This document shows, one piece after another, positions 33,606 to 40,729 of a DNA stretch of 54,445 nt. Source of the DNA: a virus (taxonomy: Duplodnaviria; Caudoviricetes); IMG/VR virus record IMGVR_UViG_3300037462_000386, positions 1 to 54,445 of that record; one strand, written 5' to 3'. The notes beneath the pieces are model-generated. The model worked only from the letters and a program-made list of their open reading frames with translations. It was not told where the DNA came from and searched no databases. A program made the translations under genes and the position numbers. The number at the start of each line of letters is the position of its first letter. The first letter of the stretch is position 1.

Positions 33606-36600
33606 ATGGTCATGCCTGACACTACCGCTCCACCAAAGCCAACCACCCGCGAAATTGCCTCGATCGTCGGTTACGGTCGGGACATTACCCGATCGTACCT
33701 GGGCAAGCTGCTTGACCCACAGGACAAGGTCTTGCGGCGCTGGTGGTACGACTACGAGGTTTACGAAGATTTACTGCGGGATGACCAAGTTAAGGCGACG
33801 TTTCAGCAGCGGCGCAGTGCGGTCATCAGTCGTGAGTGGGAGGTTAAAGCCGGGGGCGAGAAGAAGCTCGATAAGGACGCTGCCGACTTTATCCGCAAAA
33901 CCCTAGAAGAAATCCGGTGGGACAATATCGCCGACAAAATGCTGTTCGGGGTCTACTACGGCTATGGCATCGGTGAGTGCATCTGGGTGGTGCGCGACAA
34001 TCAAATCCACCTCGACACAATCAAAGTGCGGAAGCAGCGGCGCTTTAAGTTTGACTGGGAGATGAAACCCCGGCTGCTGACCTGGCAAGCCTATACCGAT
34101 GGCGAAGCGCTGCCAGATCGGAAGTTTTGGCATTATTCCACGGGTGCGGACAACGACGATGAACCCTATGGTCTGGGTTTAGCGCACTGGCTGTACTGGC
34201 CTGTGTACTTCAAGAAGAACGGCATTAAGTCCTGGTTGAAATTCTTGGAGCGGTTTGCTCAGCCGACGGTCAAGGGAGCCTATGGGCCGGAGGCGGGGGA
34301 CAAGGAGCGGCAGGCGTTGAAGTCGGCGCTCCAGGCTTTTGGGGAAGATGCGGCGGTGATGGTGCCGGAGGGAGTGGAAATCGACCTGATTGAAGCTGCC
34401 CGATCGGGCCAGGCGGACTATGGAGGCCTGTGCGATCGGATGGATGCCGCGATCGCCAAGATTGTCTTGTCCCAGACGATGACCACGGACAACGGTAGCT
34501 CGCGTTCCCAGGCCGAAGTTCACAGTGGGGTGAAGCTGGAAGTCATCAAGTCGGACGCTGATTTGATTGATGCGTCGGCGAATGCAACCTGGGTGAAGTG
34601 GCTGGTGGATTGGAACTTCCCCGGTGCGGCTTACCCCAGTATCAGCCGTGTGTTGGATGACGCGGAGAACTTGAATGAACGCGCCGATCGGGATAAGACG
34701 CTCTCTGATTTGGGTTTCAGGCTTACGCCGGAGAAGGTGGAAGAAATCTACGGCGACGGCTATTATGACCCGGCGCAAATTAAGGAAGAATCCGGTGAGA
34801 AGCCACCGCTGGTCAGTGTCCTGGGTGTCGGTGGTACGGAAGCATTGGTCAACTTCCTCCAACAATTGAGCCAGATGGCTTTGACGCGGGAGAATGCCAT
34901 TTCAACCCTGGTTACTGTATTTGGCATTAGCCGGGTTGATGCTGAGGCAATGGTGCCAGAGGATGCGCAGTTGGAGGGGGCGGCCCCGATCGAGCCAGTC
35001 GCTAGCCTTGACCAAGCGGCGGCTTTGTTCAGTGATTCAGTTGAGTTTGGCGCAATCATCGATCGGGTGATTGATTGGAATGGCCTGAAGCTGGGGGTGG
35101 AATATCTGCCTGGGCAGGTGCGATTCCCTGGTCGCAAGAACAGTAAGAAGCTGCGATCTGGCTATGGCCATATCCGCAATTACAAAGGGGCGGATGGTGA
35201 GGCCCTGGACTGTTACTTAGCCCCCGCGTTCTTTGGTGAGGCTGAACCCAGTCAGTTGATTTTTGAGGTGACGCAACTGGCGGATGATGGCGACTTTGAT
35301 GAGCATAAGTTCATGCTGGGCTATGGCTCGATCGAGGATGCTGAAGCGGCCTACCAAAGGGAGATGCCAGCGGAGTTCTTTGGCGGGATTCGGGCCGTCG
35401 ATCGGGATGAGCTGGAGCAATACAGCAAGGATGTTCAATTTGCGGAGTCGCAACGGTTATTTGCTGTGCTGCAAGTTTTAGACCAATCAGTTGAGGTGGA
35501 TATGCTGACGTTTGCAGAAACTCAGTCGAATGCGGCAATGGAGGCCGCGATCGGGCGGCGATTCTTGGCCTTATTGCAGCCTGGAGCGGTGGATTTTGCC
35601 AGTGGTGGCGGGAAGAAATGCACCACGGGGCTGAGCTGTGGCAGCAGTTGTATCAGTAAGGCGAAGGTGTGTGTTAAGACGCTGTCGCCGGAGCAGCAGG
35701 CTCAATACAAGGCGTTGGTCAAAAAGGTCAAGGCTGGAGATACGTCGGCTCAGGCGGAGATTGACGGAATCCGGAAGCAACAACAGGGGGGAGAGTCCAA
35801 CCCGGAGCAATCTCCCCTGTCGCCAAATCAATTTATTGCCCCCTCAAAAAACGTAGAACGCTCTTATAAAATCCCCGCAACGGGCAGGTCAGAGGTAAGT
35901 GCCCAGGATGTCGCGATCCCGTTTGGCCCAAATGCGTTGCGTGAGATGGCAGGTCGGCGAGTGCTGTGGAGCACGAGTGTCTCTCTGTTGGACGACATTC
36001 CAGCAGAAGAATTAAGTGGAGCGATCGGGGCAATAATTGATTCGGATCCTCAGGCGAGGACGGGCAAAGGCGAAACACTTGTCGCGGTCCATAAAGGATT
36101 CGATCCTAAAATGGCGGCGAAATTTAGATCGCTGGGGGCTGAACCAATAGACGATGCTGGGACGTACGTGGCACTGCGTTGGGATGGCGAAGATCTGAAA
36201 CCTATTACTGCTGCTGACAAGACAGAGATCGCTGCGGCCCAAGATAGGTGGAATCGGCACAGGGAAGCGTTCCGCGACGTTGAATCAATGTCTGTTGATG
36301 TGAGTATTGCCAGTATTGTTTACAAGGGCAATAAAAATAAAATGTTGGCGCTGATTGAAGAGCCGCTGAAAGCTCATCGGGAAGCCACCAAAAAACTATG
36401 GGCGGCGGAAGACAAAGATTTAAGCCGATCTCCCACAAAACAAAGCCGCAAAAAATTAGAAAAAGCACTACAAGCCGAGGCTCAGGATTGGGCGAAATCG
36501 ATGGGCTTTACGGGGGAGGGCGTGAATGGATTCTCCGCCGATGCGACGAAAGCCCACGACATTGCCCACCCAGCGACTCACCGCCTTGCCGGGATGAATT

Positions 36601-36959
36601 CCCAGCAAATCAATCGCGCATTCGGTGATCTGAAGGATGCCAATGGCAAGCCCTCACTATTGGCGGAAGAGGCACTTGTCAACGCGGTTGAGCATTTGAG
36701 CCGAGGCGATACCAAAGAAGCCTCAATCCAGAATGGCCTACGTCTCGCCAAGGTCCTTTCTCGGAATGCGACGGAGGCGGAACGGCAGTACGTACGATCG
36801 GAGGAGTTTGCTCGTGGGCTGATCGATGTGATTGAAAACCGCATCTACAAAAACAATGAATATAGCAACTTGATGCCGATCGTGCGGGATTACAATGTGA
36901 TTTCTGGCACCGTCACCACGTCGGGGGCAGACTTCACCAATTCAGCATCGGGAGGCTAA
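33606..36959 (+). CDS. Mu gp29-like portal (DUF935) fused to PPase-like, Cys-rich and unknown C-terminal domains
   Basis: PYGLGLAHWLYWPVYFKK..FLERF..IAKIVLSQTMTT..QAEVH; YGHIRNYKGADGEALDCY..FDEHKFMLG; KKCTTGLSCGSSCI. Confidence 0.88.
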   Translation: MVMPDTTAPPKPTTREIASIVGYGRDITRSYLGKLLDPQDKVLRRWWYDYEVYEDLLRDDQVKATFQQRRSAVISREWEVKAGGEKKLDKDAADFIRKTLEEIRWDNIADKMLFGVYYGYGIGECIWVVRDNQIHLDTIKVRKQRRFKFDWEMKPRLLTWQAYTDGEALPDRKFWHYSTGADNDDEPYGLGLAHWLYWPVYFKKNGIKSWLKFLERFAQPTVKGAYGPEAGDKERQALKSALQAFGEDAAVMVPEGVEIDLIEAARSGQADYGGLCDRMDAAIAKIVLSQTMTTDNGSSRSQAEVHSGVKLEVIKSDADLIDASANATWVKWLVDWNFPGAAYPSISRVLDDAENLNERADRDKTLSDLGFRLTPEKVEEIYGDGYYDPAQIKEESGEKPPLVSVLGVGGTEALVNFLQQLSQMALTRENAISTLVTVFGISRVDAEAMVPEDAQLEGAAPIEPVASLDQAAALFSDSVEFGAIIDRVIDWNGLKLGVEYLPGQVRFPGRKNSKKLRSGYGHIRNYKGADGEALDCYLAPAFFGEAEPSQLIFEVTQLADDGDFDEHKFMLGYGSIEDAEAAYQREMPAEFFGGIRAVDRDELEQYSKDVQFAESQRLFAVLQVLDQSVEVDMLTFAETQSNAAMEAAIGRRFLALLQPGAVDFASGGGKKCTTGLSCGSSCISKAKVCVKTLSPEQQAQYKALVKKVKAGDTSAQAEIDGIRKQQQGGESNPEQSPLSPNQFIAPSKNVERSYKIPATGRSEVSAQDVAIPFGPNALREMAGRRVLWSTSVSLLDDIPAEELSGAIGAIIDSDPQARTGKGETLVAVHKGFDPKMAAKFRSLGAEPIDDAGTYVALRWDGEDLKPITAADKTEIAAAQDRWNRHREAFRDVESMSVDVSIASIVYKGNKNKMLALIEEPLKAHREATKKLWAAEDKDLSRSPTKQSRKKLEKALQAEAQDWAKSMGFTGEGVNGFSADATKAHDIAHPATHRLAGMNSQQINRAFGDLKDANGKPSLLAEEALVNAVEHLSRGDTKEASIQNGLRLAKVLSRNATEAERQYVRSEEFARGLIDVIENRIYKNNEYSNLMPIVRDYNVISGTVTTSGADFTNSASGG

Positions 36960-36962
36960 TGT

Positions 36963-39637: not shown

Positions 39638-39664
39638 GGCAGGGTAACGCAGTATCGACGCACC

Positions 39665-40729
39665 ATGCCACTGCAAATCTTTACAGCCGGGAAACGTACC
39701 GACGCGAACGGGATCGAGGTGGATTTCAATGAAGCCACCTTGACCAAAGTCGCGGCGATTTACGATCCCGCATTGCACGAAGCGCCCTTTGTTTTGGGTC
39801 ACCCCAAGCATGACGACCCGGCCTATGGCTGGGCCGCTGCCCTCAGCGTCGAAGGGGCACGATTGTTTGCGGAGCCGAAGCAGGTTGACCCGCAGTTCGC
39901 CGAGTCGGTTGAGCTGGGGCGATTCAAGAAAGTCAGCGCCAGTTTTTATCTCCCAGGTTCTCCCCATCATCCCATCCCGGAATCCGACACGCCCTATCTG
40001 CGGCATGTCGGATTTCTTGGTGCAATGCCCCCCGCCGTCAAAGGCATGGCCCCGATCGAGTTCTCCGAGTCAGAGGAAGGCGTCTTTTTCTGCGAAATGG
40101 AATTCGAGATAGCTGACCTCGCCACGGCAATGGGCGATTTGCTCCAGGGGTTTCGGGATTGGCTGATTGACGAGAAAGACCTGGAAACCGCCGATCGGGT
40201 ACTTAGCTCCTGGTCGATCGATGCAGTCAAGCGTGCTGCTGCCAGATTAATGGCCAAAGCCTTTGACGAGACGGAACCCGTCGTAACCCCTATCTACAGC
40301 GAAGAACAGCCTATGAGTGACCCAACTTTGGAGGCACGGGAGCAAGCCCTTGCCGATCGCGAAGCAGCCCTGGTCGCGAAGGAGGCCGCGAATTTCTGTG
40401 ATTCGCTAATCCAGGAAGGCCGAGGGTATGTCGCGGGTGTACGGGATAAAGCGATCGCGCTTTTGACCACAGTGCCGGAATCCGATTCGGTTGAGTTTGC
40501 TGAAGGTGAAAGTGCATCGCCCCATCAGCTCGTCAAAGACATCCTTTCCGCCTTTCCGAAGGATGTGGTGTTCGCGGAAGTTGCCAAGCCGGATGCGACC
40601 CCTGCGTCCAAGGGCGATGGCGACCTGATGAAGATGGCCAAGAAAATCCAGAAAGAGAATGACGGTATGGCATGGCCTGAGGCCGTGCGGATGGCCGCGA
40701 AGGAACTCGGCATGAAAGAGGAGGCGTAA
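39665..40729 (+). CDS. Mu I-like prohead protease/scaffold
   Basis: EAPFVLGHPKHDDPAYGW..FKKVSASFY..YLRHVGFLGAMPPAVKG; possible internal scaffold start at 40313. Confidence 0.85.
   Translation: MPLQIFTAGKRTDANGIEVDFNEATLTKVAAIYDPALHEAPFVLGHPKHDDPAYGWAAALSVEGARLFAEPKQVDPQFAESVELGRFKKVSASFYLPGSPHHPIPESDTPYLRHVGFLGAMPPAVKGMAPIEFSESEEGVFFCEMEFEIADLATAMGDLLQGFRDWLIDEKDLETADRVLSSWSIDAVKRAAARLMAKAFDETEPVVTPIYSEEQPMSDPTLEAREQALADREAALVAKEAANFCDSLIQEGRGYVAGVRDKAIALLTTVPESDSVEFAEGESASPHQLVKDILSAFPKDVVFAEVAKPDATPASKGDGDLMKMAKKIQKENDGMAWPEAVRMAAKELGMKEEA

Follow-up and report, generated by a model that had tools for sequence, protein, structure and literature searches.

A recurrent hydrophobic-small-Glu motif in the head proteins of a Mu-like phage as a candidate prohead protease cleavage code

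The virus record IMGVR_UViG_3300037462_000386 of IMG/VR, analysed here over its whole length of 54,445 bases (the window), carries a Mu-like (BcepMu-type) head-assembly module. Its portal open reading frame (ORF), the adjoining gene o157 and its protease/scaffold gene share a short recurrent motif, composed of Phe (sometimes Leu, Met or Tyr), a small residue (Ala, Gly or Ser) and Glu, usually with Val or Ile two positions before the Phe. The motif is shared by several head proteins, where it occupies linkers or removable regions. Comparative sequence evidence makes it probable that these are cleavage sites of the gpI-type prohead protease, cut most likely after the Glu.

A Mu-like head module with a cargo-bearing portal gene

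The gene order portal, MuF, gpG-like, protease and major capsid (Table 1) is the same in the Mu, BcepMu and D3112 records. The protease gene is located between the gpG-like and major capsid genes, downstream of portal and MuF, as expected of the gpI/gpZ type. The nearest relatives of the window (L048 and L049; protease identity 61–64%) are uncultured elements from cyanobacterial assemblies.

Table 1. Features of the head-assembly region in window coordinates. Protease residues count from Met15 unless given as ORF residues; residue counts are among the 116 aligned proteases.
Feature	Coordinates	Strand	Description
Virion-type lysin	31068-32771	+	567 residues; C39-like peptidase and N-acetylmuramidase domains
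FHA-domain protein	32816-33559	+	247 residues
Portal ORF	33606-36959	+	1117 residues; PF06074 E 9.6e-103, PF18823 E 1.8e-25, phrog_113
LFSD	35025..35036	+	Residues 474-477; aligns with LFSE of close relatives and [L/M]-S-E of distant portal–InPase fusions
VEFGA	35040..35054	+	Start of InPase fold; Pfam InPase match begins at residue 481
InPase (type I inorganic pyrophosphatase-like) cargo domain	35046..35426	+	Residues 481-607; PF18823 E 1.8e-25
VQFAE	35433..35447	+	Predicted downstream junction site, 18 residues past the InPase FGGI strand; segment 609-642 disordered
LTFAE	35505..35519	+	Within ~50-residue repeat module (helix, FAE, helix, x-[D/E]-F-[G/A]-x)
VDFAS	35589..35603	+	Directly before Cys-rich module; related string without Glu
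Lys/Cys-rich module	35604..35675	+	Residues 667-690; GGGKKC-x5-C-x3-C-x7-C; two short strands (676-678, 681-683) in model
Mostly helical cargo domain(s)	36066..36896	+	Residues ~821-1097; no family match
ADFTN	36927..36941	+	Within conserved cargo tail; not a Phe-small-Glu site
o70	36963-37175	+	70 residues; between portal ORF and o157
o157	37176-37649	+	157 residues; phrog_113 positions 415-512
ADFAE in o157	37395..37409	+	Equivalent to canonical portal-linker FAE; Phe 82 residues from end
MuF-like protein	37708-38958	+	
gpG-like protein	39159-39596	+	
Protease/scaffold (gpI/Z-like)	39623-40729	+	ORF opens at 39623; likely start Met15 at 39665; 354 residues; phrog_976 E 3e-92
Site 1, QFAES	39890..39904	+	Residues 74-80; F78 116/116, E80 112
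Site 2, IEFSE	40055..40069	+	Residues 131-135; F133 114/116; next A66/S25/G17; then E61/D36
Site 3, IYSE ([F/Y]-S-E)	40292..40303	+	Residues 210-213 (ORF 224-227); F59/Y54, S73/A20, E103 of 116
Site 4, VEFAE (V-E-F-[G/A/S]-E-G)	40490..40504	+	Residues 276-281; F278 and E280 116/116; Gly 107/116
Site 5, VVFAE	40565..40579	+	Residues 301-305; F303 108/116, E305 114/116
o120	40730-41092	+	120-residue protein
Major capsid protein	41099-42100	+	

The portal core is of the Mu type, with residues 50–383 covering positions 1–335 of the 336 in the PF06074 (Portal_Mu) profile. The core is followed by a linker, the InPase domain, a repeat module, a Cys-rich module and ~450 residues of cargo without a family match. 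Pfam scans detected no peptidase domain in this ORF. An AlphaFold2 model of the portal ORF has a mean predicted local distance difference test score (pLDDT) of 65.5, and the InPase is modelled confidently at residues ~484–608.

Several cargo elements recur in other proteins. The ~50-residue repeat (LF-x-VLQ-x-LD...FAE...AIGRRF...x-[E/D]-F-[G/A]-x, at 35448-35603) is present in zero to two extra copies in close relatives (P0124, P0153, P0157 and P0159), and the DMLTFAET string within it is conserved in P0122, P0123, P0153, P0157 and P0159. The spacing within the module is similar to that of the VEFAEG-helix-VVFAE element of the scaffold. The Cys-rich module, which comes after a disordered linker and may be a zinc knuckle, recurs at cargo starts or joints in P0125, P0132, P0139, P0154, the L102 portal, L099:8442-10502 and L104:17662-18879. 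The helical cargo has no Pfam match below E 0.01. Its C-terminal domain (~36420-36959, residues ~940–1117), which contains the string AHDIAHPATH, is homologous to parts of P0122, P0125, P0133, P0135, P0137 and P0154, all of which end in the near-invariant tail ...SGTVT-x-SG-x-DF-x-x-SASGG. Because P0135 has the portal domain PF06381 rather than PF06074, this domain appears to be a mobile module with a conserved C-terminal peptide.

Canonical portals carry a C-terminal domain of ~80 residues on the same polypeptide after a variable linker, and the window portal does not. Residues 75–157 of o157 align with the last ~80 residues of ordinary portals, beginning at ADFAE, indicating that o157 is the portal C-terminal domain on its own gene. 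The first-pass annotation had described o157 as a split ORF, a description that this separate gene replaces. The N-terminal ~75 residues of o157 match no family. The same arrangement is kept, again as a separate ORF, in L049 (3538-7641) and L048 (3-455).

The portal ORF, o70 and o157 lie in one frame with only TAA stops (36957-36959 and 37173-37175) between them. We considered joining of the three by stop-codon read-through or recoding and rejected it: in L049 the equivalent spacer is interrupted by many stops in this frame, and o157 starts at an ATG of its own, preceded by GGAG. The shared frame therefore looks coincidental. No homologue or family was found for o70 in Pfam, in PHROG or by comparison of related loci. 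Likewise, Pfam gave nothing credible at E ≤ 1, and the ESM Atlas no usable match, for portal cargo residues 661–1117, o70, the o157 N terminus or the MuF C terminus.

The motif in the window and its relatives

The first-pass annotation had reported nine pentapeptides as a single cleavage code: VEFGA, VQFAE, LTFAE, VDFAS and ADFTN in the portal, ADFAE in o157, and IEFSE, VEFAE and VVFAE in the protease/scaffold. All nine translate exactly, in the frames of these three plus-strand ORFs. The pattern used (Phe, then Ala, Ser, Gly or Thr, then Glu, Ser, Ala or Asn) was permissive, and the strings do not form one motif: VQFAE, LTFAE, ADFAE, IEFSE, VEFAE and VVFAE are conserved in their families, whereas VEFGA, VDFAS and ADFTN (3 of 9) depart from the conserved hydrophobic-small-Glu form. 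Four further F[AS]E copies had been overlooked (LFAEP and QFAES in the protease, SFSE in o157), as had the conserved protease site IYSE. The proposed location at domain borders holds for most of the strings, which are in or near low-pLDDT segments of the AlphaFold2 models, but not for VEFAE. IEFSE falls in a disordered segment just past the protease domain (pLDDT <50, residues 122–143).

A strict F[AS]E pattern occurs 9 times in the 1,642 residues of the portal ORF, o157 and the protease, and 9 times in the 15,047 residues of the comparison set, the remaining 57 window ORFs chosen greedily without overlap. The excess is 9.2-fold (Fisher one-sided p = 1.8e-5), with a p-value that is post hoc because the three proteins were picked after the motif was seen.

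All five portal strings, together with LFSD, lie in segments with pLDDT <50: LFSD and VEFGA in 455–483, VQFAE and LTFAE in 609–642, VDFAS in 657–671 and ADFTN in 1098–1117. By alignment, VEFGA forms the opening strand of the InPase fold (consensus FG[S/A]IIDRV) and is not a Phe-small-Glu site. The string just upstream of it, LFSD, is likely to be the upstream junction site, with Asp replacing Glu. The status of VDFAS as a protease site is uncertain; a [V/L]-[D/E]-F-A-[A/S] string precedes the Cys module in P0139, L102 and close relatives.

The protease/scaffold matches phrog_976 over residues 10–362 of its ORF and has no Pfam match at E ≤ 0.01, and several homologues at 40–43% identity carry a precomputed PF10123 assignment. 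A word-index search returned 4,076 homologues at E ≤ 0.001. We aligned 116 of 120 listed homologues (38–65% identity), omitting P0010, P0036, P0057 and P0062. The alignment has five near-invariant [V/I]-x-F-[A/G/S]-E sites, and the columns around them are variable. In a subgroup (L036, L041, L092 and L093) the sites read F-[S/T]-A; the upstream ORFs tested in L041 and L093 encode a transposase, an AAA protein and a regulator but no portal, and the DNA upstream in L036 and L092 is too short for the comparison.

The AlphaFold2 model of the protease (mean pLDDT 85) comprises a β-rich protease domain at residues 1–121 followed by long helices, the scaffold part. Its only segments with pLDDT <50 are 122–143, 205–217 and 304–313, and in the model IEFSE, IYSE and VVFAE (sites 2, 3 and 5) are inside these segments or at their edges. 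The nearest solved fold to the protease domain is that of T4 gp21 (Z 7.2, root mean square deviation 4.0, 108 residues aligned), followed by herpesvirus proteases from Z 7.1 (pseudorabies protease) down to 5; herpesvirus proteases are also the best Foldseek matches (E 1.4e-2, probability 0.99). His46, Ser91 and His114 are invariant in the 116 aligned proteases. A complex prediction for protease residues 1–125 with o157 residues 55–157 scored 0.01, which gives no answer, and is not used as evidence.

We then compared 96 related loci, labelling their plus-strand ORFs by BLASTP against the window proteins and removing duplicates for densities. F[A/G/S]E is densest in the protease/scaffold (343 hits in 70 proteins; 14.1 per 1,000 residues, 14 times the composition expectation) and also enriched in the portal (56 hits in 33 proteins; 3.3 per 1,000, 4.7 times). 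It is sparser in MuF (10 hits in 32 proteins; 0.76 per 1,000, 1.8 times), the major capsid protein (4 hits in 37 proteins; 0.33 per 1,000, 0.85 times) and the other ORFs (874 proteins; 0.51 per 1,000, 1.2 times). No conserved site is present in the 37 major capsid or 32 MuF proteins, and the MuF hits are scattered except at fusion joints.

Among 34 distinct portal ORFs, 29 are of canonical length (470–580 residues), and 26 of these 29 have FAE 70–95 residues from the C terminus. The string sits in a Pro/Gly/Ala-rich linker that varies in length and is otherwise unconserved, and it is the most widespread tripeptide of that segment, present in 26 portals against 10 for the runner-up. The three canonical portals without it are those of L056, L087 and L069. 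The portal of L056 has TLELGEGDG in its linker, and in the protease of the same locus Leu replaces Phe at four of the five sites (VELGEG, VVELGEI, ISLLED, VTPELKAL). In two portal–MuF fusions (L057, 735 residues; L042, 911 residues) AEFAE stands exactly at the joint of the portal C-terminal domain with the MuF domain.

The fusion of portal and InPase (PF06074 with PF18823) is precomputed in 30 further proteins. A search with portal residues 440–1117 gave 42 proteins, of which 37 were aligned and the five without Portal_Mu were left out. The common architecture, present in Nostoc prophages and others, runs from the portal core and linker through [L/M/F]-S-E, two to three residues and [D/E]-F-G-[S/A]-IIDRV into the rest of the InPase, and continues with 20–35 residues, x-N-F-A-E and the ordinary portal C-terminal domain. 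The InPase is therefore an insertion in the portal linker, flanked by a motif at either end. An [F/L/M]-x-E string lies a few residues upstream of the InPase in 29 of 31 fusions, and F[A/G/S/T]E lies within 70 residues downstream in 21 of 31. The upstream string belongs to the junction rather than to the InPase, because the InPase domains of P0133, P0135, P0137 and P0162 lack it.

Phages of the Mu clade have another motif at the same places. Mu gpI contains no F[A/G/S][E/D] at all. It has five copies of [A/V/S]LSA after the protease domain, and the Mu portal has EAALSAED at residue 428, 84 residues from its end. Pmp9 has six copies of [A/V/L/T]LSA in gpI after the protease domain and two in the portal. 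In D3112 (and H70) the string is [I/V]AAL, with four copies in the same part of gpI and RIAALAQ at portal position 434; in RS138 it is [I/V/R]AAL, again with four copies, and IRAALAV at 437. These patterns give 1–3 hits per phage in the 2,300–3,600 residues of other proteins, counts that are illustrative. More broadly, gpI/Z of Mu (L098) and of L106–L109 carries four to six copies of [A/V][A/V]LSA or IAAL[T/S], and the same string occurs ~85–100 residues from the portal end.

Elsewhere in the region, the lysin and FHA genes (31068-33559) lie directly upstream of the portal. By eye, the translated FHA protein ends in a hydrophobic Gly/Ala-rich stretch. The C-terminal 186 residues of the MuF-like protein (38398-38958) have GNAT as their best match (E 0.037, below the cut-off) and may represent an effector domain like those of other MuF fusions.

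A candidate cleavage code for the prohead protease

Related proteases read short codes, and we therefore read the motif as P3-P2-P1, with the cut after its last residue (Phe-small-Glu here, Leu-Ser-Ala in Mu). The position of the scissile bond after Glu is inferred by analogy with T4-type and giant-phage prohead proteases. The conservation in homologues, near-invariant in the 116 proteases and present as FAE in most canonical portals, is as the first-pass annotation had proposed it could be checked. The motif moreover changes together with the protease lineage: the FAE and Mu clades each have their own form in both scaffold and portal tail, and the Phe-to-Leu change in L056 affects both proteins, with one counterexample (L069, below). 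The first-pass annotation had proposed that the I-like protease cuts at its nine strings and frees the cargo. Strong comparative evidence favours this reading over the others, with the scissile bond assigned by analogy and VEFGA, VDFAS and ADFTN re-read as above.

In the mechanism that we propose, the protease of an assembled procapsid would cut itself from its scaffold part and chop up the scaffold. It would also sever the ~80-residue C-terminal domain from the portal core and, in phages like that of the window, free the domains inserted in the portal linker. The InPase and the 450-residue cargo would then lie loose in the head, from where we infer that they could be ejected into the host.

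A broader form of this proposal, to which we give rather less than even odds, is that the portal linker is a loading dock. Mu-like phages would carry linker-inserted enzymes into the procapsid at exactly portal stoichiometry (12 copies), and the prohead protease would free them at the flanking hydrophobic-small-Glu sites by the code with which it takes the scaffold apart; the code would be lineage-specific (FAE versus ALSA) and co-evolve with the protease, and the cargo linkers would imitate the FAE-helix-FxE element of the scaffold.

A number of observations weigh against cleavage at these sites. In the window, the upstream InPase junction reads LFSD and not LFSE. The invariant VEFAEG (site 4) is modelled as a confident β-hairpin, which suits a docking element better than a cut site, and QFAES (site 1) is inside helix 76–83 of the protease fold, where its role, judged from the model, is probably structural. 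All of the fold Z-scores fall short of 8, in a range that the tool rates as middling, so that the fold assignment is suggestive only. Among relatives, 10 of the 31 InPase fusions lack F[A/G/S/T]E within 70 residues downstream, and the portal linker of L087 reads LAFAAGD (FAA, not FAE) while its protease sites are mostly FAE. In L069 (176-4428) a Mu-type portal core and the linker SLAALSVQ are found beside an FAE-type protease. This locus, which also has a portal C-terminal domain and a MuF protein of the FAE clade, is the sole clear exception to the matching of motif and protease; it may be mosaic, or its contig may be chimeric. Because the homologues are related to each other, the enrichment counts do not represent independent events, and those for the Mu clade illustrate rather than test the pattern, because the patterns were defined after the sequences had been viewed. 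Finally, literature searches gave no mapped cut or motif for Mu-like proteases, within a coverage that excludes Grimaud 1996 and the BcepMu, B3, D3112 and RcapMu genome papers; passages of PMC2628397 and PMC11445458 likewise contain no mapped cleavage site or motif for these proteases.

The strongest alternative is that the motif is a docking element, a short strand that binds a common assembly partner (such as the inner capsid surface, the portal or an exosite of the protease) and so recruits scaffold, portal tail and cargo into the procapsid, with any cutting taking place elsewhere. The hairpin at VEFAEG fits this idea, as does the unit of FAE, helix and x-[D/E]-F-[G/A]-x in the cargo linker, which is spaced like VEFAEG-helix-VVFAE in the scaffold and looks like scaffold mimicry; a common partner would also explain why scaffold and portal tail change motif jointly between clades. 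Docking gives no reason, however, for the placement of the motif exactly at fusion joints or on both sides of an inserted domain, and most copies are in segments predicted to be disordered. The Mu portal tail with the Mu-clade motif is reported to be absent from virions (PMC11915804), and the hydrophobic-x-Glu form fits the specificities known for related proteases (PMC10052503). We regard docking without cleavage as rather unlikely, although the two readings are compatible and both can be true.

It is less probable still that the motif is a structural feature, such as the helix caps or strands of small repeats, that was inherited with duplicated modules and is conserved for folding rather than recognition. 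The motifs of the cargo linker do belong to a ~50-residue repeat of varying copy number, and QFAES is clearly part of the protease fold. But the FAE of the portal linker stands in variable-length sequence with no other conservation, and the same motif is found in contexts that are not homologous (portal linker, scaffold, MuF joint and InPase flanks). Nor would a folding role account for the different motif of the Mu clade at the same places or for the paired Phe-to-Leu change of L056. The idea that a common tripeptide recurs by chance in acidic proteins rich in Ala, encouraged by the permissive first-pass pattern, is very hard to reconcile with the 9.2-fold excess in the window, the 14-fold excess in 70 homologous proteases, the invariant columns in 116 sequences and the presence of FAE in 26 of 29 portal linkers.

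Parts of this picture have been described before: portal–InPase fusions and their likely packaging (PMC5512222), processing of the Mu portal (PMC11915804), and cleavage codes in T4-like and giant phages (PMC10052503). Literature searches, which did not extend to older subscription papers, found no cleavage motif for Mu-like proteases, no clade-specific forms of one and no placement of such a motif around cargo inserted in the portal. The codes known from experiment cover T4-like and giant phages, and the large Mu-like group comprises thousands of prophages. If cleavage at the motif is true, sequence would be enough to predict mature virion proteins and released cargo, and the code would explain how effector domains fused to the portal become free proteins. 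A predicted code that differs between clades also gives direct and cheap tests, and it points to the portal linker as a natural place to insert foreign proteins so that a capsid is loaded with a fixed number of them.

Comparison with known systems

Herpesvirus assemblin cuts after [V/L/I]-X-A and before Ser. The invariant His, Ser and His of the window clade occur in the same order as in assemblin, and the fold matches to herpesvirus proteases have weak scores. The L-S-A of the Mu clade has the hydrophobic-x-Ala form of the assemblin site, whereas the motif of the window clade ends in Glu.

T4 prohead cleavage sites have the form L/I-x-E, with Leu or Ile at P3 where the motif of the window has Phe, and T4 targeting peptides act as docking signals and are also cleaved. 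T4 gp21, phiKZ gp175 and SPN3US gp245 resemble the proposed system in that a single enzyme processes the scaffold, the portal and internal or ejected proteins at a short motif ending in Glu, but the T4 and giant-phage proteases have no detectable sequence similarity to that of the window. SPN3US gp245 cleaves after A-X-E and prefers Val at P4, and besides self-cleavage of the protease all of its identified cuts remove N-terminal propeptides; propeptides of the giant-phage system also serve in targeting (PMC10052503). The predicted P3 residue is Phe here and Ala in SPN3US, and the parts predicted to be removed or released in the window are C-terminal or internal to the portal, in contrast to the N-terminal parts removed in SPN3US.

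Iyer et al. 2017 described InPases of the insert-less type fused to portal domains and predicted that they are packaged and injected, proposing processing by metallopeptidase (MPTase) domains within the polyvalent protein (PMC5512222). The passages of that study on these fusions do not propose prohead-protease motifs flanking the cargo (PMC5512222).

Mu shares with the window its portal family, its gene order and the presence of a repeated short motif in both scaffold and portal tail. The motif itself differs ([A/V]-[A/V]-L-S-A in Mu, x-F-[A/G/S]-E in the window), and the Mu portal is one gene without cargo, whereas that of the window is split and carries cargo. Mu is not among the 77 phage records matched by the window protease at E 1e-5. 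In Mu, the last 124 residues of the portal gp29 are reported to be absent from the virion, a processing attributed to protease I with reference to Grimaud 1996 (PMC11915804).

The BcepMu-type Mu-like phages BcepMu, phiE255, the Beetrevirus phages JBD67/PM105 and RcapMu have protease/scaffold proteins that are 31–39% identical to that of the window. The portal of RcapMu is split in a similar way: its C-terminal domain stands at the N terminus of the next ORF, that of MuF, with VFAD/SFAD at the joint, and the RcapMu record notes a short portal. Unlike the window, BcepMu-type phages have ordinary portals of ~490 residues without InPase or other cargo. BcepMu and JBD67 show the motif of the window clade in both proteins: in BcepMu the protease sites are of the FAE type and the portal tail carries ASFAE at residue 409, and the JBD67 portal has AEFAE at residue 402.

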